From a phage, in sequence record PQ400056.1: a DNA stretch of 64,000 nucleotides, one strand, 5' to 3'. Shown here piece by piece: positions 1 to 60,938 of this stretch. A model generated the notes under the pieces. It did no database searches. It saw only the letters and a list, made by a program, of their open reading frames with translations, and had not been told where the DNA came from. Position numbers and translations under genes: made by a program. Position 1 is the stretch's first letter, and each line of letters begins with the position of its first letter.

Positions 1-75
1 TAGAATCTACCTTTTATCGCTTTCTGTGTCTCGATATCCCAAAATTTTGTTTTTGCCACAACAAACACCTCACAC

Positions 76-9759: not shown

Positions 9760-9999
9760 ATGGTCTATAATATCGTCATTGGTGCTTTGTCTAATTTCGG
9801 AATGAAATTATTGTCAAAGTTAATTAGTGAAAAGATGCTCACTAAAATTTTCTTCTATTGCGCTCGTCGTCTTGCGGCCTATACCAATACGCCAATTGAT
9901 GATCGTTTCGTGGAAGAACTTTATAAGGAGTTTAATAAAGATCAGTCAGAAGATAGTAACGAGCAAGATAAACCTAGTGATAGTCAAGTACCTAAATAA
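9760..9999 (+). CDS. hypothetical protein (79 aa) in the position of gene 38
   Basis: ORF between gene 37 and holin t; no similarity to the T4 gp38 adhesin/chaperone recognised. Confidence 0.35.
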   Translation: MVYNIVIGALSNFGMKLLSKLISEKMLTKIFFYCARRLAAYTNTPIDDRFVEELYKEFNKDQSEDSNEQDKPSDSQVPK

Positions 10000-10032: not shown

Positions 10033-10689
10033 ATGCAAGTTTCTGAAAAAGGGAAAGACTTTGCTATCTCAAATGTCCTGCGCGCTATTTTCACAACTAA
10101 AAGCACGGAGTTGCTCGTACTTCGTGTTTTTGCTGCCGTCGTGTTGTCCATATTAGCATTTGTCGTTTATAGTAAAAACGAGTTATTTGCGCTTTATAAA
10201 GAGACTCGTTATGAGACTTATGCTCACATTCTCCAGGTAGAGAAAGACCGCAATTTTGATAATGCAGCACAGGAGCAGTTACAGATAGTTCATGTGTCGG
10301 CTGATGCCGATTTTTCTGCTGTTTTTAGTTTTCGTCCGAAAAACCTAAACTATTTTGTTGATTTGGTGGCATATGAAGGAAAGCTACCGCATACAATCGA
10401 TGAAAAAAATTTAGGCGGATTCCCTATCAATAAAACGAGTGAAGAATATCGTAGGCATCTTTTAGGTAAATCATATTTTACCGATAAAGATTTCCAGTAT
10501 ATTCCATCAAGAGAAAAGAAATTAGAGAATATCGATATAGGTTTCATGTATTCTTGTCCTATATTCAATCTCGATAATGTCTATTCTGGTAGTATCGCCA
10601 TTTCATGGAAGAATAAACCGGATATTGACATTGAGAATTTAGATACTCTTTGCAATCAATCTGCCAGAATCCTCGGAAGGATTAGATAA
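10033..10689 (+). CDS. t: holin T
   Basis: 218 aa, same length as T4 T; motifs LEQLQIVHVSADADFSAVFSFRPKNLNYFVD and YSCPIFNLDNVYSGSI match remembered T4 holin sequence. Confidence 0.9.
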   Translation: MQVSEKGKDFAISNVLRAIFTTKSTELLVLRVFAAVVLSILAFVVYSKNELFALYKETRYETYAHILQVEKDRNFDNAAQEQLQIVHVSADADFSAVFSFRPKNLNYFVDLVAYEGKLPHTIDEKNLGGFPINKTSEEYRRHLLGKSYFTDKDFQYIPSREKKLENIDIGFMYSCPIFNLDNVYSGSIAISWKNKPDIDIENLDTLCNQSARILGRIR

Positions 10690-10695
10690 CTTAAA

Positions 10696-10727
10696 GGGGA
10701 AGCCTTTCGGCCTCCCCTTCTTTTTTA
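10696..10727 (+). terminator. terminator after holin t, between convergent transcription units
   Basis: GGGGAAGCC-TTTC-GGCCTCCCC (one mismatch) followed by TTCTTTTTTATT. Confidence 0.55.
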
Positions 10728-10973
10728 TTGGCGCATAGAAGCCCCTGAATCACATTTTGACGCTGTATGATGAAAACAGGTAGCGTACCAGTCATCGGCT
10801 TGTTTGTCTTCGTCAGAAAACGCGTAATTGCGTTGTATGCCGTTTTCTACTTTGACCAGTGCAATAGCTGTTTCTGGAAGATCAATCAATCGGACAAAAT
10901 CGCCATCTTCCCATTCTACACGAGCAATATCATAACCCATCTCAAAATAAACAATCGCTTGTTCTAATTTCAT
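10725..10973 (-). CDS. hypothetical protein (82 aa)
   Basis: ORF in the coding-dense minus-strand array; start approximate. Confidence 0.45.
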   Translation of the reverse strand: MKLEQAIVYFEMGYDIARVEWEDGDFVRLIDLPETAIALVKVENGIQRNYAFSDEDKQADDWYATCFHHTASKCDSGASMRQ

Positions 10974-11302
10974 TCTGGAAACTTCCCGTAAATGTTCTCT
11001 GCTAACATACGCGCATCGCTAATGATATCTTTCATGCTATGACCGTAGTGTTCAGCCATTGAGTTGACACAATCAACAAAGAAATTATAACGGCGACGGT
11101 TTAAGATTTCTTCTCTGCTATAGTTTTCATATTTGACGGTCGAGTGTGCTTTCTCGATTGCCTTGATTGCTATATTGACTTCATTGATAATGGTTTTAGC
11201 ATTGTATGCGCCACGACGGATCAGGATATTTGTCAATTCTCTTGCAATATCTTGCAATTCTTCATATTCATGTTCAAACATAATCAACCTCTCAAAATAC
11301 AA
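10970..11302 (-). CDS. hypothetical protein (110 aa)
   Basis: ORF with stop-start overlap to neighbours in the minus-strand array. Confidence 0.5.
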   Translation of the reverse strand: MYFERLIMFEHEYEELQDIARELTNILIRRGAYNAKTIINEVNIAIKAIEKAHSTVKYENYSREEILNRRRYNFFVDCVNSMAEHYGHSMKDIISDARMLAENIYGKFPE

Positions 11303-11305
11303 TCC

Positions 11306-11638
11306 TTACAGATGAAAACCTGTTACGATCACCGCATCGATCTTACCGCTAGGAATAAACGGTTCGCCCTCTTTTATTTCAACTTTGAATTGATGCCATT
11401 TCGCTAATACTTCTTCCGGTACACCCAGCGATTCGGCGTCTGCTTTAGTTTCATCCATAATCCAACTAGGCTGCATGAGAGCATAGTTTACATAGTCCAT
11501 TTCTGGGGTCATGTCATCAATGTTAATATATTTGCAGTTGACGCGTTTCAGAATTTCAAATTCTTTATTGTCAACCTGTACCATGTATAATTCAGTAGTT
11601 TCTGGAATCAGTTCCCACACAATCAGTACATTTTTCAT
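11306..11638 (-). CDS. hypothetical protein (110 aa)
   Basis: tightly packed minus-strand ORF. Confidence 0.5.
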   Translation of the reverse strand: MKNVLIVWELIPETTELYMVQVDNKEFEILKRVNCKYINIDDMTPEMDYVNYALMQPSWIMDETKADAESLGVPEEVLAKWHQFKVEIKEGEPFIPSGKIDAVIVTGFHL

Positions 11639-11646
11639 AGTTCACC

Positions 11647-12015
11647 TCACTTAACAAAGATTTTCTTTAATGCTTTCAAGATCGTTGCTTCCGGCGCTTC
11701 TTCCGGTGGAGGAAGCAATTCTACCACTTCCTCTTCCAACTCGATATAGTCTACCAGATATTCTACATAGAATGCAAGTGCTTCCATGAAATTAGATGCT
11801 ACATCCGATTCGCCACACGCGCCCACATGCATTGTATAAACATCACTGCGATCAAGTTTGTGGATGCTTCCCAGATAGTTCCGGTTATACCAGACTTCCC
11901 ACACTTTCAGCTTTCCGGTTTTGGTTGCTGTTTTATAATCGGTTTCGTAATGATGCAATTGACGTTGCAAATCATTGATAATAACACATTTTTCGTAATT
12001 GTTTTGAATTTCCAT
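11647..12015 (-). CDS. hypothetical protein (122 aa)
   Basis: tightly packed minus-strand ORF. Confidence 0.5.
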   Translation of the reverse strand: MEIQNNYEKCVIINDLQRQLHHYETDYKTATKTGKLKVWEVWYNRNYLGSIHKLDRSDVYTMHVGACGESDVASNFMEALAFYVEYLVDYIELEEEVVELLPPPEEAPEATILKALKKIFVK

Positions 12016-12025
12016 GATGTAATCC

Positions 12026-12217
12026 TCACTTATCGTTAAGAAGTTCTAAAACTTTCTGTCGTACTTTGTCAATATTAGTTGATTCAAAAACTGTACGGTA
12101 TCCCCAGCTTTGACCGTATGAGCGGTTGCAATCTCCATATCCCCATTGTTCAACCTGATAGTATTCAAGGAATGGATGCTGCCGAACTATGATACCATCG
12201 CGATTAAAAATTACCAT
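12026..12217 (-). CDS. hypothetical protein (63 aa)
   Basis: ATG at 12217 with GAGG SD. Confidence 0.45.
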   Translation of the reverse strand: MVIFNRDGIIVRQHPFLEYYQVEQWGYGDCNRSYGQSWGYRTVFESTNIDKVRQKVLELLNDK

Positions 12218-12240
12218 AATATAATCCTCACGTCAACAAC

Positions 12241-12528
12241 TTATTTTCGGTTGTGGTCACGATATGTTTTAAAATATCCCTCGTACCACGGTAAAACATC
12301 TGGATTTTTACCACTATACAGACCTTTAACCATCATGTCAATAAGGCCATCTGGTGTTTGATAGTTTCCAGCTTTTATAAGCTCTCTGATTAAAATCTCT
12401 CTGTATATGTCTTTCGGATCTTCGTAATCAACTTGTATTGTGGTTGTGGTCTCATTCAATTTGGTTTCTGGAGTATCTCGCATTGCATCCCACCAATCTT
12501 TTGTGACCTTCATGTTATTGAATTGCAT
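12241..12528 (-). CDS. hypothetical protein (95 aa)
   Basis: minus-strand ORF. Confidence 0.45.
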   Translation of the reverse strand: MQFNNMKVTKDWWDAMRDTPETKLNETTTTIQVDYEDPKDIYREILIRELIKAGNYQTPDGLIDMMVKGLYSGKNPDVLPWYEGYFKTYRDHNRK

Positions 12529-12539
12529 AATTTAACCTC

Positions 12540-13298
12540 TTACTTGCAAACGTATTGATCTACATCAATTGCGCCACCGAATGTGGGATGACGTTTTTCA
12601 AATCGAATAGTTCCGTCGTTTGGTTCGAAAACGGAGTATTCATATAGATCTTTCTTGCCAACATTCTTATAAAACCCGCCTTTCGTCATAACGGTTTCTT
12701 GTACGTTTGCTTTGTGTACGTTGTATTCATCAATGTATACAAAATCAACCATCTTCCCATTTTTAATGGTTACTTTAAGATCCCCTGGCTGGTTTCCATA
12801 TTTTGCATACAGTGGAGCCTCTTTAATTTTTGTGGAAATTCCATCTTTCATACTCCACTCATAACGAACGGTGCATTGATAGGTAAAAGTTTCGACCTTC
12901 GGTTCTTCTACCACTTTTGCTTCCTGTTTCGGTTGTTCTTCTTCAACCTTCGCAGAAGTCTCTGAATCGCTTTCTGACGCGGTTTCTTCTTTAGGTAATA
13001 CATTCATCAAGTTTTGGATTTGAGCGTTATATACAGCCTCCAGTGGCTGAATCTGCCCGATATTGATCATTGTATCACGAACAGTTTTATTCCAGTTTCG
13101 TTGCTCTTGTTTCAGAGACGGATCAATCTTAACAGCCTTAACATACACCTCATGAAGTTTAGAGTCCAGTGCGGAGATAGACTCATTAGCACAAATAAAC
13201 TTCTCTGATTTGGTAGTAGCTTTAGCGCAATCAAAGGACGCAGCGTTAGCACCGAAAGCAGTAGCAGAAAGAACGATAGCAGCGATAATGTTTTTCAT
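12540..13298 (-). CDS. secreted protein with DUF1311/LprI-like N-terminal domain
   Basis: 252 aa; signal peptide MKNIIAAIVLSATAFGANA; ASFDCAKATTKSEKFICANESISALDSKLHEVY resembles the two-cysteine DUF1311 motif; E/K-rich linker then a C-terminal domain; ATG 13298 with GAGGA SD. Confidence 0.6.
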   Translation of the reverse strand: MKNIIAAIVLSATAFGANAASFDCAKATTKSEKFICANESISALDSKLHEVYVKAVKIDPSLKQEQRNWNKTVRDTMINIGQIQPLEAVYNAQIQNLMNVLPKEETASESDSETSAKVEEEQPKQEAKVVEEPKVETFTYQCTVRYEWSMKDGISTKIKEAPLYAKYGNQPGDLKVTIKNGKMVDFVYIDEYNVHKANVQETVMTKGGFYKNVGKKDLYEYSVFEPNDGTIRFEKRHPTFGGAIDVDQYVCK

Positions 13299-13332
13299 AA
13301 TATATTCCTCAGTGTTTTGTCTTGATGGGAGT

Positions 13333-13362
13333 ATCTTACTACTCCCTTAATCCGGTGTCAAC
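13333..13362 (-). promoter_or_regulatory. early promoter cassette copy: GTTGAC, 18 nt, TAAGAT, with conserved leader
   Basis: minus-strand GTTGAC (13362-13357) and TAAGAT (13338-13333); overlaps stem-loop GGGAGTA / TACTCCC (13327-13346); leader ACTCCCATCAAG ... GAGGA before ATG 13298. Confidence 0.5.
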
Positions 13363-13372
13363 TACTTTTAAA

Positions 13373-13693
13373 TTATTTTCGCCATTCACCGGAAACAATA
13401 AAGTTTGTAAAGTGATCGTGGTCCATGATAACGTCATTAAGTACCATATGTGGATACACTTTAGTGATAATTTTACTAAGTACCATATGCGGATATGCTT
13501 TAGTGTAATCACGTTTACGATCAGTCATCCAGCCAACGAAAGTTGGTGCAAAGTACGGTACACCGTCAGACGATGCCATATTAAACCCTTTATCAACCAT
13601 AAATGCAGCCGCCCTAAGATTTTTAATTGAAGTAGTGCGACTAATTTCAAAAACTTTATCGGTAAAATTCATTTTAAGCCCCCGCTCGTGCAT
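13373..13693 (-). CDS. hypothetical protein (106 aa)
   Basis: minus-strand ORF. Confidence 0.45.
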   Translation of the reverse strand: MHERGLKMNFTDKVFEISRTTSIKNLRAAAFMVDKGFNMASSDGVPYFAPTFVGWMTDRKRDYTKAYPHMVLSKIITKVYPHMVLNDVIMDHDHFTNFIVSGEWRK

Positions 13694-13883
13694 TAATACG
13701 CATTTTCTGTATAGCCATGATCTGGTTTACTGCTTCTTCTTTACGTTCTTGCGTGATAATGTGACCAGATTCCGCAAACTCTCCAGCAACTTCTTCTACG
13801 ATCTCGCGAACTTGAGAACGTCCAAAGATGCGGTTTCCTTCGTAGCTCATAAACTCTGTTACTACTTGCTCGATAGATTTCAT
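13674..13883 (-). CDS. hypothetical protein (69 aa)
   Basis: ATG 13883 preceded by conserved leader AAAGGAGAATCAC. Confidence 0.5.
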   Translation of the reverse strand: MKSIEQVVTEFMSYEGNRIFGRSQVREIVEEVAGEFAESGHIITQERKEEAVNQIMAIQKMRINARAGA

Positions 13884-13912
13884 GTGATTCTCCTTTCGTT
13901 TGGTATGGGAGT

Positions 13913-13942
13913 ATGTTACTACTCCCTTATCTTTACGTCAAC
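13913..13942 (-). promoter_or_regulatory. early promoter cassette copy: GTTGAC, 18 nt, TAACAT
   Basis: minus-strand GTTGAC (13942-13937), TAACAT (13918-13913); stem-loop GGGAGTA / TACTCCC 13907-13926; leader ACTCCCATACCAAACGAAAGGAGAATCAC then ATG 13883. Confidence 0.5.
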
Positions 13943-13948
13943 TAGTTT

Positions 13949-14191
13949 TTAGAAATTTTTCGCTTCTTCTTCGGTCATCATAACCGCGCATTCGTGCATA
14001 ACTTTGAAAACCGGATCAATCATGTCGAATGCTTCGCGGGACAGTTTACGAGAAGCGATTTTGATTGCTTCTACGTCTTCTACTACAGGAACAAAAACAG
14101 TTTTCAGTTCGTCGAGGACGGCAGCTTCTTTTTCATTCAGGAAGATCCCAGCGTCGTACAGTGCAACTTCGATAACATTAACTTTAACCAT
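13949..14191 (-). CDS. hypothetical protein (80 aa)
   Basis: track ORF 13949-14254 starts at TTG inside the promoter; first ATG with GGAGGA SD is at 14191. Confidence 0.5.
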   Translation of the reverse strand: MVKVNVIEVALYDAGIFLNEKEAAVLDELKTVFVPVVEDVEAIKIASRKLSREAFDMIDPVFKVMHECAVMMTEEEAKNF

Positions 14192-14225
14192 TTTTATTTC
14201 CTCCAGTTCGTTTCGGTATGGGAGT

Positions 14226-14255
14226 ATAATACTACCGATGACCTTTGGCGTCAAC
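14226..14255 (-). promoter_or_regulatory. early promoter cassette copy: GTTGAC, 18 nt, TATTAT
   Basis: minus-strand GTTGAC (14255-14250), TATTAT (14231-14226); leader ACTCCCATACCGAAACGAACTGGAGGAAATAAAA then ATG 14191. Confidence 0.5.
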
Positions 14256-14455
14256 TAGTTTTTTGTTATTTTCGTGAAATTTTTCGTCGCCTCATGTGCT
14301 TTTCGCTGGGCTTCTTGTTGTGCTTGCTGGCGTGCTGCCTCTTGCGATGTCATAACAGACGCATTTGCAGCAGTTACAGCCGCGACCATCGCTGCGGTAT
14401 TAGCATTTACCGTACATGCACTAGCCAGCAAAGCAATCGCAATCATTTTCTTCAT
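14255..14455 (-). CDS. small secreted protein (66 aa)
   Basis: N-terminal signal peptide MKKMIAIALLASACTVNA; A/Q-rich mature part. Confidence 0.5.
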   Translation of the reverse strand: MKKMIAIALLASACTVNANTAAMVAAVTAANASVMTSQEAARQQAQQEAQRKAHEATKNFTKITKN

Positions 14456-14691
14456 AGTTTCCCCTTTAGGTTATCTTCGACCTTCACCCATTCCGCGTAT
14501 TCTTGCGCGGCTACTTTCGGATTTAAGCCGTCTTCGTACATTGCTTCAAGTAATTCTTCGTCGGTGGGCTTATACCCTAGATAAGCCTCCACCTGATTTT
14601 TCCAAATTTTATACCAGTTCATATTATCACCAATCAAGAGCGCGTGTCTCTGCGTCTTCCCATGCTTGATCCATAACAGCCTTGAAAACAT
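14452..14691 (-). CDS. hypothetical protein (79 aa)
   Basis: minus-strand ORF with ATGA-type overlap to the downstream gene. Confidence 0.45.
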   Translation of the reverse strand: MFSRLLWIKHGKTQRHALLIGDNMNWYKIWKNQVEAYLGYKPTDEELLEAMYEDGLNPKVAAQEYAEWVKVEDNLKGKL

Positions 14692-14899
14692 ATTCTAGAG
14701 TATCATCTTTAGAGAATCCGAAGACCTTAGACGGAATATCTTCAATTGCTACTCCCGCAACTTCTGCATTACGCGCTTGGCAATAATGCAACTCTAAGTT
14801 ATCGAGATAGCGACCGCCTAATTTCTCCATATCATCCCAGCATTTCCAGTAACCTACTTTATCTGCAATTGCCAACACTTTGCTGTTTTCGTTGTTCAT
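14627..14899 (-). CDS. hypothetical protein (90 aa)
   Basis: track ORF starts at 14962 inside the promoter; first ATG with AGGAG SD is at 14899. Confidence 0.45.
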   Translation of the reverse strand: MNNENSKVLAIADKVGYWKCWDDMEKLGGRYLDNLELHYCQARNAEVAGVAIEDIPSKVFGFSKDDTLEYVFKAVMDQAWEDAETRALDW

Positions 14900-14930
14900 C
14901 TTTGATTCTCCTTTTGTTTGGTATGGGTGT

Positions 14931-14960
14931 ATTATGCAATGTTGGATTCTGTAAGTCAAC
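14931..14960 (-). promoter_or_regulatory. early promoter cassette copy: GTTGAC, 18 nt, CATAAT
   Basis: minus-strand GTTGAC (14960-14955), CATAAT (14936-14931); leader ACACCCATACCAAACAAAAGGAGAATCAAAG then ATG 14899. Confidence 0.5.
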
Positions 14961-14970
14961 AACTTTTTAA

Positions 14971-15000
14971 AATAAAAAAGCCGACCACAAGGATCGGCTT
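14971..15000 (-). terminator. rho-independent terminator (minus strand)
   Basis: minus-strand AAGCCGATCC-TTGT-GGTCGGCTT followed by TTTTTATTTT; lies just downstream of the 15010-15405 gene. Confidence 0.6.
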
Positions 15001-15009
15001 AATAATCAG

Positions 15010-15405
15010 TTACTTACTAAATTTCTTTTTGGCTTCGTCTACTGCATGAGATGCCAGCACCGCTGCCGCATGTGCACTTTTATCTGTGTTGCAGAGAACA
15101 CCCAGATAAACATCACGCCAAAGTTTAATCATCTCGTAGATCATATCAATATCATTTTCTTGTTTGTTGGCGATGCTATTCGTCGTTATCTGGTAAGGCA
15201 ACGGCTTGATCTGTACTGGTTCAGCCATCGGGCTAATCGGTTTCGGATCAGTCATAATAGGTGCTGTTGTTGGTGGTGTTTTCCATACACCATTATTCCA
15301 CGGTTTAATCGTTGTGTCGTAAAGTTTATAAGGATTTTTGTCTGGGTCAACCATCCATGCATGATGAGTACCCAAACCATTTGAAGTGATGCGTCGTTCA
15401 GTCAT
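15010..15405 (-). CDS. hypothetical protein (131 aa)
   Basis: minus-strand ORF followed by a terminator. Confidence 0.5.
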   Translation of the reverse strand: MTERRITSNGLGTHHAWMVDPDKNPYKLYDTTIKPWNNGVWKTPPTTAPIMTDPKPISPMAEPVQIKPLPYQITTNSIANKQENDIDMIYEMIKLWRDVYLGVLCNTDKSAHAAAVLASHAVDEAKKKFSK

Positions 15406-15408
15406 AAT

Positions 15409-15612
15409 TTATTTCCTCTCTGAAAATTCTTTCATCAAGCTGTCGATCTTTGCTCTGTGTTCTGGTGTGTTTGTCATCTCTGCTAATTTGCTCAGAGATT
15501 CAATAGTGATCCGGTTGGCTTCTTCCATAGTCTCAACGACCATTGGCACAATCTTTTTATTGTTGTACACAAATGCAATATAACCGCCTTCTGGATATTC
15601 TTTCATAATCAA
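15409..15612 (-). CDS. hypothetical protein (67 aa)
   Basis: minus-strand ORF immediately downstream of gene 52. Confidence 0.45.
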   Translation of the reverse strand: MIMKEYPEGGYIAFVYNNKKIVPMVVETMEEANRITIESLSKLAEMTNTPEHRAKIDSLMKEFSERK

Positions 15613-16955
15613 CCCTTCTTAAGTTCTTTAAGATCTTTCTTATATTCCTTCATTGCGGTCGTCTTTGTCCAATACTCATATTCACTATGATGTTTATCGG
15701 CATCTTTGACCAGTCGATCATACTCTTCTTGAGTAACGCTATACAATGGCATAGAAACTAGCTTATCGGCGTATGGACGCAGTTTTTCATGTCCATTGAT
15801 GGATTGCATTACCTCGGCCTTTTTCTTGCCCTGTAGCTCGATTTCGCCCTTAATTACGCGGTCGATAAATTCGGCTTTAGCCATTGCATAATTGTATGCT
15901 TCCAGCGTTTCCGCTTGCATCAATTCAATGCGTTTATCGACATACCCTAATCGGATTTCGACGAATCGACGGATCAGATCGCTCGCTTTCTCGAATACTT
16001 CTACTAAACCACGTTCATTAACCACTACGATATTCTGGGCTACTAACTGTGTTAGTTTAAAATCCTTCATGATTTGCTCATGTCGAGCGGATTCATCTTC
16101 GCTTTTGAAATAATCGCGTTTCAGTGTTACTTCAAATCTGAATCCGTCCTTAGAGCAACGGTCATTATACGATACAATCAGATCTTTTTCTTCCAGTGCA
16201 TCCAGTACCGCTACATATTCTTCACGGTCGAACTTATAAGGAACTTCTGATATTGTCAGTTTAGTCTTGCCGTTTAGTTCATATGTACCCTCAAGAATCA
16301 CACCATCGCGATCATCTCGCGGGATAACTTTACCCGTGAATTTCGGGAATTGAACATTAGGTTCTTTATCCAGTTTTCCGGCAAGTGCTAGCTCTGTGCA
16401 TTCAATAAGGCTTTCCAGTGAATGCGGTAAAATGTCAGTTTTATACCCTGAAGCAATACCACTAATACCATTAGCCAATACCATTGGCACAACTGGCAAG
16501 TAGAACGCTGGCGGGATGTGTTCCAGATCTTCGTGCTTAGGTGCGCAATTCATATCTTTATAGATTTTAAAGAAGTTTTCATGCACACGAGCAAAGATAT
16601 AACGTGCCGCTCCTGCTTTCTGGACTAAACGCGATCCGAAGTTACCTTGACCGTCAAGCAGTGGAGTATTATTGCTCCATGTATTCGCCATGAGTGATCC
16701 GGCTTCTACGGCATTAGTTTCGCCGTGGTGATACCCCAACTCAGCGACACCAGATCCAATATCTGCCATCTTACGGAATTTCTTACGGTCGCCTTTACTC
16801 TTTTGCAAAGCACATTCCATAACAAAGCGTTGCACTGGTTTAAGCCCATCCACTAATTGAGGAATCCCGCGTTCCTCGGCAGAATAGATCGCATATTCCT
16901 TAGCTTCATTATGTACAATGCTTTCAAGGCTGCGGTAAGTAACTGATTTATTCAT
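15609..16955 (-). CDS. 52: DNA topoisomerase II medium subunit gp52
   Basis: GyrA-like motifs LVDGLKPVQRF, LLDGQGNFGS, ARYIFARV matching remembered T4 gp52; track start 16970 is GTG, first ATG with SD is 16955. Confidence 0.92.
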   Translation of the reverse strand: MNKSVTYRSLESIVHNEAKEYAIYSAEERGIPQLVDGLKPVQRFVMECALQKSKGDRKKFRKMADIGSGVAELGYHHGETNAVEAGSLMANTWSNNTPLLDGQGNFGSRLVQKAGAARYIFARVHENFFKIYKDMNCAPKHEDLEHIPPAFYLPVVPMVLANGISGIASGYKTDILPHSLESLIECTELALAGKLDKEPNVQFPKFTGKVIPRDDRDGVILEGTYELNGKTKLTISEVPYKFDREEYVAVLDALEEKDLIVSYNDRCSKDGFRFEVTLKRDYFKSEDESARHEQIMKDFKLTQLVAQNIVVVNERGLVEVFEKASDLIRRFVEIRLGYVDKRIELMQAETLEAYNYAMAKAEFIDRVIKGEIELQGKKKAEVMQSINGHEKLRPYADKLVSMPLYSVTQEEYDRLVKDADKHHSEYEYWTKTTAMKEYKKDLKELKKG

Positions 16956-16962
16956 CTTCACC

Positions 16963-17325
16963 TCATACACGCTTACAAATCACATTCTTTACTTTATCAG
17001 ATTTATCAGCCCAATCCAATAGCCATTTTAACGGAAGGATTGACACAATAAACGGGGCAGCAATCAAAGCAAACATGATACACCTGATAATCAGGAAAAC
17101 GCAAGTGACAAAACTAGCGATAGTGATCCCGACAAAACAAAATACCATAGAAAACAGAGTAATGATATAGAAAGGCCAGAATACCCACTCCCGCATCTTA
17201 ACGCCTTTGTATTCTCTGAATTGCTTAAAATCTACAAACAACTCTCGGATAGACGCGTACAGGACCGAAAAATCATCTTTCATTGCTCTGAATGAGCAAT
17301 CTTCTATTTTAGAATGACCTAGCAT
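16963..17325 (-). CDS. small membrane protein (120 aa)
   Basis: two long hydrophobic segments (FWPFYIITLFSMVFCFVGITIASFVTCVFLIIRCIMFALIAAPFIVSIL). Confidence 0.5.
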   Translation of the reverse strand: MLGHSKIEDCSFRAMKDDFSVLYASIRELFVDFKQFREYKGVKMREWVFWPFYIITLFSMVFCFVGITIASFVTCVFLIIRCIMFALIAAPFIVSILPLKWLLDWADKSDKVKNVICKRV

Positions 17326-52213: not shown

Positions 52214-52741
52214 TTATTTTAAATTTTTTCGAATGTAGTCAGACCATTCCTTCCCTGTCAGTTCGGTCCCATTCTGGAAACTGAAATATTCATACGGCAT
52301 CGAGTCAAGATAAAACAGGATCATACATCGCGCCATATAATACCAATCACGATTAAAGTAAACTACGTTATCGCCAGTACCATCAGCACCTTTATCATAA
52401 CCATCGCGGGTACGGGCGACCCATTGAATAGTATCATTTTTCTCACGGATCGTAACAGGTTCCCAATATCCAGCACATCCAGCATGACCACACGAACAAG
52501 TAATGAAATATTGTCCTTTTGCTTTGTTGTCATCCCATTCACGATGGATTGGTTCGATCTCGTGAAACAGTGCTAAGCAATCATGATTATGCAACACTGG
52601 CTTACCATCAATCAATGCATGGAATGTATACAAACGACCCGTAGACAAATAGCTATCCTCACGCTCAACCAGTTCAATAGCAATCTTTTTAGCTCGTTCT
52701 TTGTGTCGTTGTGCTTTACGCTTACGGTTTAATGATTTCAT
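52214..52741 (-). CDS. hypothetical Cys/His-rich protein (175 aa)
   Basis: basic N-terminus MKSLNRKRKAQRHKERAKK; HNHDCLALFHEIEPIHREW and CSCGHAGCAGYW suggest metal binding; ATG 52741 with GAGGTGA SD. Confidence 0.5.
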   Translation of the reverse strand: MKSLNRKRKAQRHKERAKKIAIELVEREDSYLSTGRLYTFHALIDGKPVLHNHDCLALFHEIEPIHREWDDNKAKGQYFITCSCGHAGCAGYWEPVTIREKNDTIQWVARTRDGYDKGADGTGDNVVYFNRDWYYMARCMILFYLDSMPYEYFSFQNGTELTGKEWSDYIRKNLK

Positions 52742-52758
52742 ATTCACCTCACACATTA

Positions 52759-53298
52759 TCAAAGGTCGCGATATAGTACATTATGAAAATGAGAACTTGC
52801 ATTACCAATATTGTAGATAATAAATTCTTCATCCGGCGCTTGCGCTACAAATTGAGTATGAGCAACCGCCACAACCTTAAAAATACGATCCGTGATCTTG
52901 TGTTTAATTTCTGCCCCTACTTCCATAGGAACATATTCATTTGTTTCTGTTTCAGTCGCAAAACAGCCATCTTCTTCATAAGCACGAACAAATCGATCGC
53001 AATCAGTACGCTTAACAAATTCAAGAGTATACAATTCTCGTGAATTGTCGGTATAGACCAATACAGAATTATTATGATAGCGAATCACATACAGGTTATT
53101 ATCATCGTCAATTACGCAAAAGCTACGGATTCCTTCGCCTTTACTCCAGCAGATATTAACCACCGTTCCTCTAATAAAAAAACTTTCCTTTAAATTAAAA
53201 CTAGTCAATGTGCTAGCGTGCATTTTAACAACAACACCATCGCCAATTTCCAGTTTACGAAGTTTAACTTCTTTGTTCAGTACACAAAACATCATCAT
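52759..53298 (-). CDS. hypothetical protein (179 aa)
   Basis: first gene after the nrdD terminator-promoter pair; ATG 53298 with GAGAGG SD. Confidence 0.5.
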   Translation of the reverse strand: MMMFCVLNKEVKLRKLEIGDGVVVKMHASTLTSFNLKESFFIRGTVVNICWSKGEGIRSFCVIDDDNNLYVIRYHNNSVLVYTDNSRELYTLEFVKRTDCDRFVRAYEEDGCFATETETNEYVPMEVGAEIKHKITDRIFKVVAVAHTQFVAQAPDEEFIIYNIGNASSHFHNVLYRDL

Positions 53299-53327
53299 GT
53301 TGTCCTCTCGTTGTTTTCGATGTGAGC

Positions 53328-53355
53328 ATTATACATTAGCTAATCATGTTGTCAA
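53328..53355 (-). promoter_or_regulatory. consensus sigma70-type promoter TTGACA, 16 nt, TATAAT
   Basis: minus-strand TTGACA (53355-53350), TATAAT (53333-53328); mirrored on the plus strand at 56596-56623 in the inverted copy. Confidence 0.6.
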
Positions 53356-53361
53356 CACCCC

Positions 53362-53393
53362 AAAACGAAAAAGCCGACCCTTTCGGATCGGCT
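53362..53393 (-). terminator. rho-independent terminator after nrdD
   Basis: minus-strand AGCCGATCCGAAAGGGTCGGCT followed by TTTTCGTTTT. Confidence 0.6.
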
Positions 53394-53398
53394 GAAAT

Positions 53399-55262
53399 TT
53401 ACATGTGCTTAACGCGGTTTACCATCTCGGAGTGTTTCCCGTGGTTGAATGGACGCAGATCAACAGATCCAAGATATCCACTAACGCGACGGATAACATT
53501 CATCTTTTCCAGATTGTCATTACCGCAATCAGGACAAACAAAACCAGACTCGGTCGCTCTCATTTCCTTAGTAGATCCGCATACATGACATACATCAGAA
53601 GGAGTATTAACACCGAAGTAGTGCAATTTATCCATTGCATAGTCTACTACAGTTTCAAGACCTTTCAGGTTGTTTTTCATGTCTGGGAACTCAACATAAG
53701 AGATCATGCCACCGGACGCCAGCCAGTGATAATCTTTCTCAAAGTCAATTTTCTCAAATGGAGTGACTTTCCGGTCTACGTCAAGGTGGAATGAGTTGGT
53801 GTACCAGTCTTTATCGGTAGCACCCTTAACAATACCAAATTGCTCTCGGTCCAGTCGATTAAATCGATAGCAAAGGCTCTCGGCTGGAGTACCGTAAAGA
53901 CTAAACCCAAGTCCGGTTTCGTCCTTCCATTTTTCAGTATAATGACGCAAGATCTTAAGAATATGTTTACCGTATCGCTGCGCATCTTCCGAATCAAACG
54001 GATGAACACCAAACAGGACGCTCAATACCTCATGTAAACCAATATATCCAAGAGAGATACTAGCGCGACCATCTTTCAACACTTCCAAAATTTCATCGTT
54101 TTGATGAATACGGAAAAACGCACCTTCGGTATACAGCACCGGAGCAACATTGGCTTTAGCCCCTTTTAAAGCGTCTACGCGACTCATGAGCGCATCAAAG
54201 CAAATAGGCATACGATTGGCTAGCTCTTGTTCGAATAGCTCAATTCTGCGCATTACAGACGCTTTACCAGCACGACGCGCGGCAATAAGGGCAATACGCG
54301 GAAGATTCAGGGTCACAACACCCAAGTTATTACGTCCGTCTAATACTTCTTCTCCTTTCTCATTATGCCACACACCCAGGAAGCTACGACAACCCATCGG
54401 GCTAACCGGAACACTAGATCCGGTGATACTACGGTTATTCTTCGCAGAGATATAATCAGGGTAAAGACGCTTACTAGAACATTCCAATGCAAGTTGCTTA
54501 ATGTCGTAGTTCGGATCTTCCGGTTTAAGGTTTAATCCTTCTTCTAAGAACATCACCAGCTTAGGAAACACCGGAGTGATACCATCTTTACCTAAACCTT
54601 TAGTTCGAACGTTCAGGATCGCTTTCTGAATCAGTTTTTTCTTCCCAGCTAGTACCCATACCAAAGGTTAAAGTCACAAAAGGCGTTTGACCGTTGGTGG
54701 AGAACAAAGTGTTGATTTCATATTCCAACGCCTGATATCCGTCTAACGTTTCTTTTTCTGTTTTCTCTTGTGCATAGAGAGTATCAGCTTTGATTCCGTA
54801 GGTTTCGGCATCAGCAAGGTGTTTATAATATGTTTTCTCAACATACGGTGCTAACACCTGATCGATGTTTGCGATTGTGGTCCCGCCATATTGATGACTT
54901 GCCACCTGTGCGATAATTTGAGCGGTTACAGCACAAGCAACGCCGATTGATTTCGGACTTTCGATTTGTGCGCTACCCAATTTAAAACCATTCTCTAACA
55001 TGTCTTTGAGATTAACAAGACAGCAGTTAGTAAACGGCATAGCGGGTGCATAATCCATATCATGATAATGAATGTCACCGTCTACATGCGCTTTATAGAT
55101 GTGCTCAGGTAACACGGTTTTAGCAATCTGTTTAGACACAGCACCAGCAATCAGATCTCGACGTGTCGGGAATGTTCGCGCGTCTTTGTTCGCGTTCTCT
55201 TTGCTTACTTCGTTTTCTTTACCCGTTGCGATCTCTGTAATGTCTTTGATTAGTTTTTCCAT
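53399..55262 (-). pseudogene. nrdD: anaerobic ribonucleotide reductase NrdD, interrupted by a 1-nt frameshift in an A6 run
   Basis: N-terminal ORF 54600-55262 (ENANKDARTFPTRRDL, FTNCCLVNLKDMLENGFKLG, TFGMGTSW) and C-terminal ORF 53399-54664 (LIQKAILNVRTKGLGKDGITPVFPKLV ... C-terminal CPDCG zinc ribbon) match remembered T4 NrdD; frames join if the A run at 54635-54640 (minus strand) is 5 nt; no intron. Confidence 0.85.
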
Positions 55263-55404: not shown

Positions 55405-57721
55405 TAGAAGAAGGATTAAACCTTAAACCGGAAGATCCGAACTACGACATTAAGCAACTTGCATTGGAATGTTCTAGTAAGCGTCTTTACCCTGATTATA
55501 TCTCTGCGAAGAATAACCGTAGTATCACCGGATCTAGTGTTCCGGTTAGCCCGATGGGTTGTCGTAGCTTCCTGGGTGTGTGGCATAATGAGAAAGGAGA
55601 AGAAGTATTAGACGGACGTAATAACTTGGGTGTTGTGACCCTGAATCTTCCGCGTATTGCCCTTATTGCCGCGCGTCGTGCTGGTAAAGCGTCTGTAATG
55701 CGCAGAATTGAGCTATTCGAACAAGAGCTAGCCAATCGTATGCCTATTTGCTTTGATGCGCTCATGAGTCGCGTAGACGCTTTAAAAGGGGCTAAAGCCA
55801 ATGTTGCTCCGGTGCTGTATACCGAAGGTGCGTTTTTCCGTATTCATCAAAACGATGAAATTTTGGAAGTGTTGAAAGATGGTCGCGCTAGTATCTCTCT
55901 TGGATATATTGGTTTACATGAGGTATTGAGCGTCCTGTTTGGTGTTCATCCGTTTGATTCGGAAGATGCGCAGCGATACGGTAAACATATTCTTAAGATC
56001 TTGCGTCATTATACTGAAAAATGGAAGGACGAAACCGGACTTGGGTTTAGTCTTTACGGTACTCCAGCCGAGAGCCTTTGCTATCGATTTAATCGACTGG
56101 ACCGAGAGCAATTTGGTATTGTTAAGGGTGCTACCGATAAAGACTGGTACACCAACTCATTCCACCTTGACGTAGACCGGAAAGTCACTCCATTTGAGAA
56201 AATTGACTTTGAGAAAGATTATCACTGGCTGGCGTCCGGTGGCATGATCTCTTATGTTGAGTTCCCAGACATGAAAAACAACCTGAAAGGTCTTGAAACT
56301 GTAGTAGACTATGCAATGGATAAATTGCACTACTTCGGTGTTAATACTCCTTCTGATGTATGTCATGTATGCGGATCTACTAAGGAAATGAGAGCGACCG
56401 AGTCTGGTTTTGTTTGTCCTGATTGCGGTAATGACAATCTGGAAAAGATGAATGTTATCCGTCGCGTTAGTGGATATCTTGGATCTGTTGATCTGCGTCC
56501 ATTCAACCACGGGAAACACTCCGAGATGGTAAACCGCGTTAAGCACATGTAAATTTCAGCCGATCCGAAAGGGTCGGCTTTTTCGTTTTGGGGTGTTGAC
56601 AACATGATTAGCTAATGTATAATGCTCACATCGAAAACAACGAGAGGACAACATGATGATGTTTTGTGTACTGAACAAAGAAGTTAAACTTCGTAAACTG
56701 GAAATTGGCGATGGTGTTGTTGTTAAAATGCACGCTAGCACATTGACTAGTTTTAATTTAAAGGAAAGTTTTTTTATTAGAGGAACGGTGGTTAATATCT
56801 GCTGGAGTAAAGGCGAAGGAATCCGTAGCTTTTGCGTAATTGACGATGATAATAACCTGTATGTGATTCGCTATCATAATAATTCTGTATTGGTCTATAC
56901 CGACAATTCACGAGAATTGTATACTCTTGAATTTGTTAAGCGTACTGATTGCGATCGATTTGTTCGTGCTTATGAAGAAGATGGCTGTTTTGCGACTGAA
57001 ACAGAAACAAATGAATATGTTCCTATGGAAGTAGGGGCAGAAATTAAACACAAGATCACGGATCGTATTTTTAAGGTTGTGGCGGTTGCTCATACTCAAT
57101 TTGTAGCGCAAGCGCCGGATGAAGAATTTATTATCTACAATATTGGTAATGCAAGTTCTCATTTTCATAATGTACTATATCGCGACCTTTGATAATGTGT
57201 GAGGTGAATATGAAATCATTAAACCGTAAGCGTAAAGCACAACGACACAAAGAACGAGCTAAAAAGATTGCTATTGAACTGGTTGAGCGTGAGGATAGCT
57301 ATTTGTCTACGGGTCGTTTGTATACATTCCATGCATTGATTGATGGTAAGCCAGTGTTGCATAATCATGATTGCTTAGCACTGTTTCACGAGATCGAACC
57401 AATCCATCGTGAATGGGATGACAACAAAGCAAAAGGACAATATTTCATTACTTGTTCGTGTGGTCATGCTGGATGTGCTGGATATTGGGAACCTGTTACG
57501 ATCCGTGAGAAAAATGATACTATTCAATGGGTCGCCCGTACCCGCGATGGTTATGATAAAGGTGCTGATGGTACTGGCGATAACGTAGTTTACTTTAATC
57601 GTGATTGGTATTATATGGCGCGATGTATGATCCTGTTTTATCTTGACTCGATGCCGTATGAATATTTCAGTTTCCAGAATGGGACCGAACTGACAGGGAA
57701 GGAATGGTCTGACTACATTCG
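55405..57721. repeat. inverted repeat arm 2: inverted duplicate of nrdD 3' part, terminator, promoter and two ORFs
   Basis: track ORFs 55464-56552, 56653-57192 and 57189-57800 duplicate the 53399-54664, 52759-53298 and 52214-52762 products; the last acquires a different C-terminus past the repeat boundary at 57721. Confidence 0.9.
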
Positions 57722-58060: not shown

Positions 58061-58166
58061 TCATCCAAGCATCACACATCACTATGCCGACACAGAAGAC
58101 ACCGTGCTGGAAATTCAGCGGCTGGCTACCGTCTGCCGCGACACCCTGAATGGCATGACGAAGTAA
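58061..58166 (+). other. 3' fragment of a truncated upstream ORF of the P2-like replication region
   Basis: open frame ...HPSITHHYADTEDTVLEIQRLATVCRDTLNGMTK ending 7 nt before the gene A start; 5' part absent. Confidence 0.3.
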
Positions 58167-58172
58167 ATCACT

Positions 58173-60938
58173 ATGACGGCAGAGCACATCAGGGACTGGC
58201 AACAACCGCGCCACGCAGTGGGGCGTGAAGGAACGGGGATCCCCGCTCCTGAATCCGCGCTTTCCTCCTGGCTGGATGCCTACCGGGCAGAGAACGAGCG
58301 CCGCAAGGAAATGGCTGATGCGGCGTTCTCCGCCACGCCGCTGGGCAACCTGATTAATAAAAGCCTGGACGCACAGGAAAAACAGGACAAAACCATCACA
58401 CTGGCAGGAGACGCCAGAAAACAGGCACGCGGCGCAGTGGATGAAGCCATGGCCTCGCTGCGCCTGCTGCCGTCCTATCTGCGCGATCCGCTTATTCGCC
58501 ACCTCTCCTTCCTGCGCAAAAAACAGGAAGCCGATCGCCGGAAAGGCAAAAAGAGCTGGCAGGCGGAACGCTATGCACGCGGAACCCTGCGCAAAATATT
58601 CGAACGTCTGGACCGCACCGATCACCGCTGGCTGACACCGGGTTATCGCTCCCTTGCCGGACGCGAACGCCTGGACGATTTGCTTTACCTGCCGCAGCTC
58701 AACAAACACCAGATACAGACGCTGGCCACCATGACGGCGGCGATGTTCAGCAGCACCTTCGAAAAACTCTGCGATGGCTTTGGCGCGACCGATGGCGAGC
58801 TGACCATGGATGTAACGCTGAAGGCGTATCAGATGCTGGCCCGCATGGCGTTACACCTGCACGCCATGCCTCCACATTATGACGCACTGACAACAGACAA
58901 AGACCGGAGGAACGAACCAGACACGGAGCTGCTGCCGGGCGCAATCCTTCGCCTGACCTGTGCGGAATGGTGGAAACGCAAACTGTGGCTGTTACGTTGC
59001 GAGTGGCGGGAAGAACAACTCCGCGCCGCCTGTCTGGTTTCCAGAAAAACATCGCCCTATCTGAGCCAGGACGCGTTAAGCGAGTTTCGCGCACAGCGCG
59101 AGAAAACACGCGATTTCCTGAAAAGTTTCATGCTGGAAAATGAAGACGGGTTCACGATTGATCTCGAGACGGTGTATTACGCGGGAGTAAGTAACCCGGT
59201 TCACCGTAAGGCAGAAATGATGGCCACCATGAAGGGACTGGAACTTCTGGCCGAAGCCCGTGGCGACAGAGCGGTGTTTCTGACCGTCACCTGCCCGTCA
59301 AAATACCACGCAACAACGGAGAACGGTCATCCGAACCCCAAATGGAACGGGGCCACCATGCGCGACTCCAGCGATTACCTGGTTAACACGTTTTTTGCGG
59401 CGGTCCGCAAAAAACTGAACCGCGACGGCCTGCGCTGGTATGGCATCCGCACGGTGGAGCCTCACCATGACGGCACTGTGCACTGGCATATGATGGTCTT
59501 TGCACATCCGGACGAGATTGAAACCATCGTGTCCCACGTCTGCGATATTGCCATTCAGGAGGACCGCCACGAGCTGGGCGATGACATAACTCCGCGTTTT
59601 AAGGCGGAGTATGTCGACGGCTCAAAAGGCACACCAACCAGCTACATCGCCACCTACATCGGAAAGAACCTGGACAGCCGCGCCGTGGATGGCATCGACC
59701 CGAAAACGGGCAAGCCACGCGTTGACCACGAAACCGGAAAATCAATGGCCGAGAGCGTGGAGCGCGCCATCGGCTGGGCGCGCCTTCACCGGGTCCGTCA
59801 GTTCCAGTTCTTTGGCATCCCCTCCCGTCAGGTGTGGCGTGAACTGCGCCGCCTTGCCAGCCAGATGGCACGCAATCCGGAAGGCCCGCAACGGCTGAAA
59901 GATGATGCAATGGATGCGGTACTCGCTGCCGCCGATGCCGGGTGTTTTGCCACCTACATTGAAAAACAGGGTGGCGTGCTTGTTCCACGCAAGGACTACC
60001 TGATTCGCACCGCCTACGACCTCGCAGATGAGCTGAACGATTACGGCGAACAGAGCGTACAGATTTACGGGATCTGGTCACCACTCATCGGGGAATCCTC
60101 CCGTGTGTGCACGCATCCGGATAACTGGAAATTGGTAAGACGTAAACCAGAACCAGAAGACAACGCCCACGAAAATGGTTTTGACCTTCAGGGCGGCCCT
60201 GCCGCCCCTTGGACTCGTGGCAATAACTGTCCCCGTGTACAGGAAACAGGCAACAGCGGGACAGAACAGTCGGAAGAACGGCCAGCACCGTGGCCGCAGC
60301 TTCCTGACGGCGTTGATGTGGATGAATGGATGCGCTCACTGAAACGGCACGAACGCCGGGCGCTGATGCGTTCGCTGCGTGACAAACAGGCAAAAAACAA
60401 CAGTGATGAAATGCAGAACTGGACACAGAGCCGCAAACAGCCGCGGCCTTTGCCTGATAACCACGAGTTACTCGCTAAAGAATGGCGGGAGTCTGCCGAA
60501 TCTCTCGGCCTGCATATCGGTGAACAACAGATGCTGCACCTGTTACGGGGCGGCAGTCTGTACGTTGACGGCAGCATCATTGCGCCGCAGGGATATGAAA
60601 TTGTATGTAAACCGGATACCCGACCGGACAGCCGAATCACGCAACTCTGGCAGCGCCTGAGTCGTAATCACAGCGTAAACAGCACGGAAATCCGCCATAA
60701 CCCGGTTTCCAGCTATCTGAAACAGCTCGGGGCATCAGACCCAGAAGCCGCCGCACGCCTGGCATCCACAATTCAGCAGGACCAGAACACCATGAAAACT
60801 CCCGTTACCGTGCTTTCTGACATGCTGCGCGCCATCCGTGACGCAGAGCACGCACAGAGAATCAATGAAACCACTGAACGCGCACGTCACAAGGCGGGTC
60901 TGTTGCAGGGCAAAGGCAATAGCGAGAAGAAAAAATAA
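58173..60938 (+). CDS. A: P2-type replication initiation protein A (HUH rolling-circle endonuclease)
   Basis: 921 aa, GC-rich; HUH motif VHWHMMVF and dual-tyrosine motif YIATYIGKN typical of the P2/186 gpA family; minus-strand track ORFs inside it are judged spurious. Confidence 0.85.
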   Translation: MTAEHIRDWQQPRHAVGREGTGIPAPESALSSWLDAYRAENERRKEMADAAFSATPLGNLINKSLDAQEKQDKTITLAGDARKQARGAVDEAMASLRLLPSYLRDPLIRHLSFLRKKQEADRRKGKKSWQAERYARGTLRKIFERLDRTDHRWLTPGYRSLAGRERLDDLLYLPQLNKHQIQTLATMTAAMFSSTFEKLCDGFGATDGELTMDVTLKAYQMLARMALHLHAMPPHYDALTTDKDRRNEPDTELLPGAILRLTCAEWWKRKLWLLRCEWREEQLRAACLVSRKTSPYLSQDALSEFRAQREKTRDFLKSFMLENEDGFTIDLETVYYAGVSNPVHRKAEMMATMKGLELLAEARGDRAVFLTVTCPSKYHATTENGHPNPKWNGATMRDSSDYLVNTFFAAVRKKLNRDGLRWYGIRTVEPHHDGTVHWHMMVFAHPDEIETIVSHVCDIAIQEDRHELGDDITPRFKAEYVDGSKGTPTSYIATYIGKNLDSRAVDGIDPKTGKPRVDHETGKSMAESVERAIGWARLHRVRQFQFFGIPSRQVWRELRRLASQMARNPEGPQRLKDDAMDAVLAAADAGCFATYIEKQGGVLVPRKDYLIRTAYDLADELNDYGEQSVQIYGIWSPLIGESSRVCTHPDNWKLVRRKPEPEDNAHENGFDLQGGPAAPWTRGNNCPRVQETGNSGTEQSEERPAPWPQLPDGVDVDEWMRSLKRHERRALMRSLRDKQAKNNSDEMQNWTQSRKQPRPLPDNHELLAKEWRESAESLGLHIGEQQMLHLLRGGSLYVDGSIIAPQGYEIVCKPDTRPDSRITQLWQRLSRNHSVNSTEIRHNPVSSYLKQLGASDPEAAARLASTIQQDQNTMKTPVTVLSDMLRAIRDAEHAQRINETTERARHKAGLLQGKGNSEKKK

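Follow-up and report, generated by a model that had tools for sequence, protein, structure and literature searches.

The 4.9-kb interval between the holin gene t and gene 52 in phage sequence record PQ400056.1 is highly likely to be one of the hyperplastic regions (HPRs) of a Krischvirus (RB49-like) T4-type coliphage, occupying the locus at which T4 carries asiA, arn and motA. In the window, i.e. the whole stretch of 64,000 nucleotides analysed here and numbered from its first letter, the interval holds 15 tightly packed open reading frames (ORFs) at 10725-15612, all on the minus strand, between t (10033-10689, plus strand; Pfam Phage_holin_T, E 4.5e-61) and gene 52 (15609-16970, minus strand; Pfam DNA_topoisoIV, E 2.3e-68). 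The class of feature, the locus and the genus have been described before, and earlier publications already cover the lack of motA and asiA, the simpler programme of transcription and the architecture of HPRs with promoter-early stem-loops (PeSLs). The interval provides a clean worked example of the gain and loss of PeSL-bounded cassettes over 12 genomes at the t-to-52 locus, together with two concrete leads to accessory functions in phages used for therapy, i.e. a possible Tad2-like sponge and a host-related, predicted secreted LprI-domain protein with swappable C-terminal domains.

The assignment to Krischvirus is based on both sequence and gene order. Among the 59 phage records matching a 6-kb query around the block, every one with taxonomy checked is from Krischvirus (the RB49 group of T4-type coliphages), the nearest being the Escherichia phages vB_EcoM_Skers (Skers) and kaaroe, with 97-98% identity to the 6-kb stretch. 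In a distant-mode search, Krischvirus records cover 59-100% of the interval at 92-98% identity; RB49 covers 79%, with ~96% identity over the matching part. The gene order in the window (34-37, a small dc5-like ORF, t, the 15-ORF block, 52, rIIB, rIIA, 39, dexA, dda, srd, 61, 41, uvsX, 43, 62, 44, 45, 46, 47, 55, nrdG, nrdD) is that of RB49, spanning the conventional map start.

Predicted early promoter cassettes and terminators

The block had been described from its sequence as punctuated by repeated promoter cassettes and a terminator, and both elements were recovered. Four intergenic cassettes on the coding strand agree with the sigma70 consensus at 10 or more of 12 positions, with a 17-nt spacer and an AT-rich tract upstream; each is followed, 58-63 nt downstream, by a start codon that has a Shine-Dalgarno sequence. 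Cassette a (13299-13372, minus strand; -35 TTGACA at 13361-13356, -10 TAAGAT at 13338-13333), which is followed by the Shine-Dalgarno sequence of ORF7, has a stem-loop, GGGAGTA...TACTCCC (13345-13326), that overlaps the -10 element (folding free energy, dG, -11.9 kcal/mol). The identical 7-bp G+C-rich stem-loop lies over the -10 element of cassette b (13884-13948, minus strand; -35 TTGACG at 13941-13936, -10 TAACAT at 13918-13913; dG -11.9, z-score -3.2), and that of cassette c (14192-14254, minus strand; -35 TTGACG at 14254-14249, -10 TATTAT at 14231-14226) is degenerate (dG -9.6, z-score -1.3). Cassette d (14900-15000, minus strand) combines an intrinsic terminator (15000-14978; dG -12.7, z-score -3.9) with the fourth promoter directly downstream of it (-35 TTGACT at 14959-14954, -10 CATAAT at 14936-14931).

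The cassettes share extended repeats (families D1, D2, D5 and D7), and a 37-nt pattern joining the -35 element to the stem-loop occurs twice in the window, compared with 0.00 expected. A loose promoter scan gave, overall, 20 sites against 22.6 expected, i.e. no enrichment; the non-randomness thus resides in the repeated cassettes rather than in promoter-like hexamers generally. In reporter assays, the PeSLs of RB49 and phi1 acted both as strong promoters and as efficient terminators (Arbiol et al. 2010, PMC2839356), and the same PeSL stem-loop subclass occurs at three further RB49 sites outside the t-to-52 interval.

A second, stronger terminator, absent from the original prediction, is a bidirectional intrinsic hairpin at 10693-10720 (dG -23.2 kcal/mol, z-score -5.5; none of 200 shuffles folds as well). 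It lies between the stop codons of the convergent genes ORF1 (early, minus strand) and t (late, plus strand) and has a T-run on the plus strand, and we therefore read it as the terminator parting convergent early and late transcription. The record of phage G37-3 has an annotated terminator at the equivalent place. Regarding other promoter-like sequences in the block, the best sigma70 match of the region (12341-12313, minus strand; TTGACA-17-TATAGT, 11/12) falls within the coding sequence of ORF6, with ORF5 ~95 nt further downstream. TTGACG...TATTAT just upstream of ORF5 was rejected as a promoter, its -10 element abutting the start codon.

Cassette gain and loss across Krischvirus

The t-to-52 interval was taken from 11 relatives and the window (12 genomes in all), and all minus-strand ORFs were clustered. 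The interval ranges from 3863 to 5581 bp and from 13 to 18 ORFs. Ten of the 15 ORFs in the window (ORF1-7, 9, 14 and 15) have counterparts in all 12 genomes, and thus only part of the interval is truly variable; the seven variable families are ORF8, ORF10, ORF11, ORF12, ORF13, a 51-residue ORF (RB49 ORF261c) and a 68-residue ORF. Cassette-scale gains and losses are located at 13.3-15.0 kb, in the gene-52-proximal half, with their junctions inside promoter cassettes. The comparison hence bears out the prediction of a plastic accessory region, with the qualification that 'hyperplastic' fits mainly this 13.3-15.0 kb segment.

Individual junctions illustrate the pattern. In phage ECD7 a deletion of four genes has brought the terminator/promoter cassette right up to the ORF9 leader; in G37-3 the cassette downstream of the 68-residue ORF (the ORF-F19 cassette) is joined to ORF9. 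Cassette d is fused to differing downstream genes in ECD7, FL04, G37-3, SSG23 and Brandy. The window and kaaroe have lost the 51-residue ORF261c module between its own cassette and the ORF7 cassette; in relatives this module (with the F11 cassette) has a polyG/polyC stem between the -35 and -10 elements. Because the RB49 ORF261c cassette is missing, cassette a directly follows ORF8 in the window.

Such differences might instead be ordinary strain-level indel noise in a ~1.7-kb segment of an otherwise stable, genus-specific early operon. Most of the ten ubiquitous ORFs are 94-100% identical, and 45 of the 59 records align over at least 80% of the 6-kb query, conserved t and gene 52 flanks included. 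We consider this explanation decidedly unlikely, however: interval length varies by 45% among 12 genomes with a nucleotide identity of 92-98%, and the seven variable families are present or absent in differing combinations. The positions of the flanking genes t and 52 do not vary. Further, ORF2, ORF6 and the ORF7 C-terminal domain occur as alternative alleles at 14-53% identity, ORF5 is common to an unrelated phage subfamily, and the locus is classed as an HPR in the literature.

With respect to ORF2, the window has a single, 53%-identical allele where RB49 has three genes (254c, 256.1 and 255c). A recombinant origin of ORF2 from the RB49 paralogues 254c and 255c was rejected, its identity to them being uniformly ~53% and ~36%, respectively; it is a third allele.

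Absence of AsiA, MotA and Arn

The T4 t-to-52 interval comprises asiA, asiA.1, arn, arn.1-4, motA and motA.1, in agreement with the original prediction that asiA, arn and motA stand at this locus in T4. That none of the ORFs in the block matches MotA or AsiA, as the same prediction held, is now supported by translated, pairwise and profile searches. T4 AsiA, MotA and Arn gave no tblastn match better than E ~1 in the 64-kb window (MotA best E 3.0). With phmmer, the only match below E 0.5 in the window was that of MotA to the low-complexity, predicted secreted ORF11 (E 0.12; 7.4 bits). Searches of the 15 ORFs against Pfam (E<=1) and PHROG (E<=0.01) returned no AsiA, MotA or Arn family; as a positive control, the T4 proteins were assigned to phrog_1166 (AsiA), phrog_1345 (MotA; 2.3e-98) and phrog_3151 (Arn), with E from 1e-41 to 1e-98. 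Direct homology of the 15 ORFs to any of the nine T4 proteins of the asiA-motA interval was rejected, blastp and phmmer giving noise only.

Findings on promoters are consistent with the proposed lack of T4-style middle-mode transcription. Counts of the MotA-box pattern TGCTTNA-N11-13-TANNNT are 3 for the window (3.03 expected) and 5 for the RB49 genome (7.2 expected). In T4 1-50000, which is orthologous to 17-55 kb of the window and served as a positive control, the pattern occurs 17 times against 3.47 expected (~five-fold), a count that none of 100 shuffles reached. The complete RB49 genome likewise has no match to T4 AsiA or MotA (tblastn E<=1; phmmer E<=0.1), and neither is listed in the curated RB49 annotation. 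The best Arn match in the RB49 genome (E 0.016-0.03) is within the gene 7 region on the opposite strand and does not represent a homologue. That RB49 has neither motA nor middle promoters was reportedly described by Desplats et al. in 2002. Nolan et al. (2006, PMC1524935) found neither a motA orthologue nor a middle-promoter consensus in RB49, citing an earlier failed attempt by Desplats et al. (2002), and listed AsiA only for RB69, 44RR, Aeh1 and KVP40.

These results do not favour a diverged, AsiA- or MotA-like sigma-appropriation factor hidden among the ORFs and driving a cryptic middle mode. The best candidate for such a factor is ORF2, which is small, predicted to be all-helical, near the position of T4 asiA (one gene further from t) and the top, non-significant phmmer match of T4 AsiA against all window ORFs (E 1.3; 5.0 bits); phages with AsiA only (KVP40 and Aeh1) show that the AsiA/MotA pair can uncouple. 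ORF2 was nonetheless rejected as a hidden AsiA: its model lacks an AsiA-like fold, and a profile of the ORF2 family matched only designed coiled coils in the PDB. We regard a cryptic middle mode as very improbable.

One family, phrog_1594, is common to the window block and the T4 interval, with matches from ORF4 (E 8.8e-26) and T4 Arn.4 (E 1.1e-26), the genes of which are at syntenic positions; because they share it, the t-to-52 loci of T4 and of the window are orthologous. The direct pairwise match between ORF4 and Arn.4 is weak (7.6 bits), and the link surfaced only via the PHROG profiles; the RB49 annotation also relates ORF257c to arn.4 in a note.

Candidate functions of ORF1 and ORF7

ORF1 (10725-10973, minus strand; 82 residues; RB49 ORF253c) matches Pfam PF11195 (Tad2/DUF2829) with 27.9 bits against a cutoff of 25 (E 3.4e-6), over model positions 1-71 of 73, and the precomputed Pfam annotation for the ORF1 cluster (P0001) gives the same DUF2829 domain. 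Its predicted structure has the elements of the Tad2 fold, i.e. an N-terminal helix, an antiparallel five-stranded sheet and short helices. An exhaustive HMMER search of ORF1 against 1.84 billion representatives gave 8 matches, three of them repetitive giant proteins, which is too few for a deep alignment. The most likely assignment of ORF1 is that of a candidate Tad2-type sponge, sequestering nucleotide immune signals of the Thoeris, CBASS or Pycsar type.

ORF7 (12540-13298, minus strand; 252 residues; RB49 ORF260c) begins with a predicted Sec signal peptide, MKNIIAAIVLSATAFGANA, with cleavage before AS, followed by an LprI/DUF1311 domain, an acidic linker and a variable C-terminal domain. 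Residues 24-76 match Pfam PF07007 (LprI) with 25.8 bits against a cutoff of 22, and homologues carry the NCBI name 'lysozyme inhibitor LprI family protein'. Over residues 1-123, ORF7 is ~95% identical to an E. coli chromosomal protein of that name encoded beside hicAB/yncJ/ydcP, after which the two diverge, their C-terminal domains being unrelated. Krischvirus genomes conserve the signal peptide and the LprI domain at 95-100%, and at least three versions of the C-terminal domain occur among them (100%, 37% and 14% identity). The combination of a constant, apparently exported module with a swappable domain and its own, predicted strong promoter suggests an envelope-acting function, e.g. superinfection exclusion. 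ORF7 is thus possibly a periplasmic LprI-domain protein acting as a lysozyme inhibitor or as an envelope-acting exclusion factor.

The Spackle protein of T4 (sp) is a periplasmic inhibitor of the tail lysozyme gp5 and serves superinfection exclusion. Neither T4 sp nor imm has a detectable homologue in the window or in RB49, and a Spackle-like role for ORF7 is conceivable, purely by analogy. A tblastn match of T4 Spackle in RB49 (E 0.049) lies inside gene 41 and was rejected as noise.

It may be that the conserved part of the block nearest to t is a Krischvirus anti-defence and exclusion module. ORF1 would then be an active Tad2 sponge shielding a T4-type coliphage from immunity based on nucleotide signals (Thoeris, CBASS or Pycsar), and ORF7 a periplasmic, E. 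coli-derived LprI-type lysozyme inhibitor with an exchangeable C-terminal specificity domain, which would replace the missing Spackle and Imm functions in superinfection exclusion; we hold this more specific proposal to be rather unlikely. The Tad2-like and LprI calls are already in public domain databases as precomputed Pfam annotation, and the phage records label both genes 'hypothetical protein'. Host-takeover, exclusion or anti-defence roles had been suggested for the block as a whole; a credible Tad2-like assignment for ORF1 supports the suggestion in part, and 12 of the 15 ORFs offer no functional clue.

The remaining ORFs of the block

The original prediction of about 15 small ORFs of 63-252 residues was correct in number; the sizes changed to 56-252 residues after comparison with annotated relatives shifted four start codons (ORF2 to 11281, ORF10 to 14191, ORF12 to 14622 and ORF13 to 14899). 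ORFs are separated by 3-24 nt or have overlapping stop and start codons, except at four gaps of 60-110 nt, which contain the promoter cassettes. GC skew is negative across the whole block, as in the adjoining early genes. Thirteen of the 15 ORFs match PHROG families, none of them with an assigned function. PADLOC and NCBIfam scans of the block ORFs returned nothing useful, and PDB sequence searches with ORF1, ORF3, ORF4, ORF7 and ORF14 gave no match.

Starting from t, ORF1 is followed by ORF2 (10970-11281; 103 residues from ATG 11281, TTG 11302 in the ORF list), a predicted four-helix bundle and a divergent allele of RB49 ORF254c. ORF3 (11306-11638; 110 residues; RB49 ORF256c) is 95-100% conserved and matches phrog_4658 (E 2.3e-40), with no Pfam, NCBIfam, PADLOC or PDB match. 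The arn.4 homologue ORF4 (11647-12015; 122 residues; phrog_1594) is RB49 ORF257c. ORF5 (12026-12217; 63 residues; phrog_6957) is a module common to rV5-like (Vequintavirinae) phages. ORF6 (12241-12528; 95 residues; phrog_15915) has two allelic types in the genus, ~50% identical.

Upstream of ORF7, ORF8 (13373-13693; 99-106 residues, with the start at 13672 or 13693; phrog_19692), present in 5 of the 12 genomes, is a homologue of phi1 ORFan 263.1, which has been named as an HPR ORFan (PMC2839356). ORF9 (13674-13883; 69 residues; phrog_14966; RB49 ORF262c) is found in all 12 genomes. The variable ORFan ORF10 (13949-14191; 80 residues from ATG 14191; 7 of 12 genomes) and ORF11 (14255-14455; 66 residues; 6 of 12 genomes) have no family match. 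ORF11 begins with the predicted signal peptide MKKMIAIALLASACTVNA, with cleavage before NT, and has an Ala/Gln-rich tail; it is predicted to be a small secreted or membrane-anchored protein. ORF7 and ORF11 are the two signal-peptide proteins of the original prediction, their Sec-type N-termini being read directly from the sequence. ORF12 (14452-14691), most likely of 56 residues from ATG 14622, matches phrog_8655 over residues 22-72, and ORF13 (14627-14899; 90 residues from ATG 14899; RB49 ORF264c) matches phrog_7287; both are lacking in ECD7 and G37-3. ORF14 (15010-15405; 131 residues; RB49 ORF265c; phrog_15644, E 1.4e-92), for which Pfam, NCBIfam and PDB searches gave no match, occurs in all 12 genomes. 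The start of ORF15 (15409-15612; 65-67 residues; RB49 ORF266c; phrog_15105) overlaps the gene 52 stop codon. ORF2 to ORF15 are all on the minus strand.

Given that 12 ORFs lack a known domain, that several are shorter than 70 residues and that four had ambiguous start codons, the ORFs might be regarded as mostly non-coding filler, or as pseudogenes decaying after loss of asiA, arn and motA. We judge the probability of this to be negligible. The ORFs are tightly packed on one strand, with a Shine-Dalgarno sequence preceding each one checked; 13 match PHROG families at E 1e-19 to 1e-156; they are intact, with 91-100% protein identity across genomes; and two give folded models of moderate to high confidence.

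Two observations concern single ORFs. ORF8 contains a 39-bp tandem duplication (13426-13503; repeat family D3; copies 82% identical) that yields a repeated KxYPHMVL motif; the kaaroe record gives this duplication as a repeat_region. Taken together with its ribosome-binding site, ORF5 (12009-12229) is ~84% identical in nucleotide sequence to a hypothetical gene in more than 100 rV5-like (Vequintavirinae) records, which looks like a recent horizontal exchange of a single 63-residue gene between unrelated myovirus groups.

The flanking regions and the source contig

The sole ORF between gene 37 and t is a 79-residue dc5-like ORF (phrog_402; 9760-9999, plus strand). Unlike in T4, there is no gene 38 adhesin/chaperone between 37 and t; RB49 gene 38 is annotated far off, at a position of ~45 kb. 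Homologues of the T4 early genes sp, imm, motB, modA, goF, mrh, srh, pin and dmd were not detected in the orthologous part of the window (17000-55000; tblastn E<=0.01), whereas those of genes 61, 61.1, 41, dda, dexA, srd and rpbA of T4 1-50000 were; dmd is present elsewhere in the RB49 genome.

Colinearity with Krischvirus ends near 55.39 kb. The segment at 55405-57721 is a perfect (100%) reverse-complement copy of 52230-54546, i.e. a 2317-nt inverted repeat with an 858-nt spacer, and 58062-60883 (probably to 64000) has 96.7% identity to the replication gene region of the P2-like phage P88 and related prophages and is therefore not T4-type DNA. The Krischvirus relatives are colinear only to ~55387, and the second repeat arm therefore looks like a fold-back assembly artefact. 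The source contig is very probably chimeric or a fold-back misassembly past ~55.4 kb, with a T4-type phage joined to a P2-like phage or prophage. This leaves the t-to-52 interval unaffected, and bears on any other finding from the window beyond ~55.4 kb.

Discussion

The proposed HPR would operate as follows. Unmodified host sigma70 RNA polymerase would transcribe the genes of the block straight after infection, in part by reading through from gene 52 and in part by starting at the block's own PeSL promoters, with the PeSL stem-loops attenuating read-through. Homologous recombination between PeSL cassettes would insert, delete or swap modules consisting of a promoter and an ORF, as Arbiol et al. 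(2010) proposed for RB49 and phi1. The products would be non-essential accessory proteins acting on the host or on competing phages. In the case of ORF7, the constant N-terminal half may have been exchanged with E. coli and the C-terminal domain swapped between phages. The phage programme would be two-stage (early and late), with no sigma appropriation.

Several observations weigh against, or narrow, this interpretation. Much of the block is not hyperplastic, the ten ORFs found in all 12 genomes making it a stable genus-specific module. The ORF2 replacement, the ORF6 alleles and the C-terminal swaps of ORF7 are not bounded by promoter cassettes, and PeSL recombination is therefore not the sole mechanism at work. 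Promoter and terminator activity in the block is read from consensus, conservation and published assays on other RB49/phi1 PeSLs. With respect to function, the lack of any clue for 12 ORFs applies here as well. The Tad2 assignment of ORF1 is marginal, with a Pfam score only 2.9 bits over threshold and a mean predicted local distance difference test (pLDDT) value of 70.7 for the model; Foldseek with this model gave nothing at E<=0.001, and a profile of ORF1 homologues did not match the Tad2 sequences in the PDB. The LprI match is limited to the N-terminal domain of ORF7, and lysozyme inhibition as a function is transferred from a mycobacterial protein, a lipoprotein.

Comparison with known systems

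ORF1 shows very low identity (14-25%) to the Tad2/DUF2829 sponges, including SPO1 Tad2, ModTad2 (9EIB) and HgmTad2/AcrIIA7 (8KBI), and has few homologues. ORF7 and T4 Spackle are alike in being early-expressed phage proteins exported to the periplasm, as predicted in the case of ORF7, the domain of which is annotated as a lysozyme inhibitor; the two are unrelated in sequence, and the analogy is functional only.

Compared with the T4 t-to-52 interval, the window differs in gene content, 14 of its 15 genes being unrelated to the T4 set, with AsiA, MotA and Arn absent. It also differs in its promoters, which are of sigma70 consensus type with stem-loops and not MotA-dependent, MotA boxes being unenriched. 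The two intervals nevertheless have the same flanks (37 and t on one side, 52 on the other), the same early-strand orientation and the arn.4/ORF4 family, and each encodes a small predicted exported protein (motA.1 in T4; ORF11 in the window).

The closest counterparts are the HPRs of RB49, phi1 and JSE, which are at the same locus in the same genus; the window block corresponds to RB49 ORF253c-266c and to phi1 ORF255-268. Only the gene set differs, the window having ORF8, ORF10 and ORF11 and lacking the 51-residue ORF261c cassette, the 256.1/255c pair and the 68-residue ORF of FL04, G37-3, SSG23 and Brandy. PeSL-mediated modular shuffling has been described for RB49 and phi1 (PMC2839356), with an extension to further T4-like phages (Comeau et al. 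2014, PMC4122927); the published mini-circle experiments concerned other HPRs (ORF192 and ORF210) rather than the t-to-52 locus (PMC2839356). The cassettes of the window resemble the RB49/phi1 PeSLs in their AT-rich tract, consensus -35 and -10 elements, stem-loop over the -10 element or upstream of the promoter, and in their Shine-Dalgarno sequence, and, as in the RB49 and phi1 HPRs, the indel junctions lie within the cassettes.

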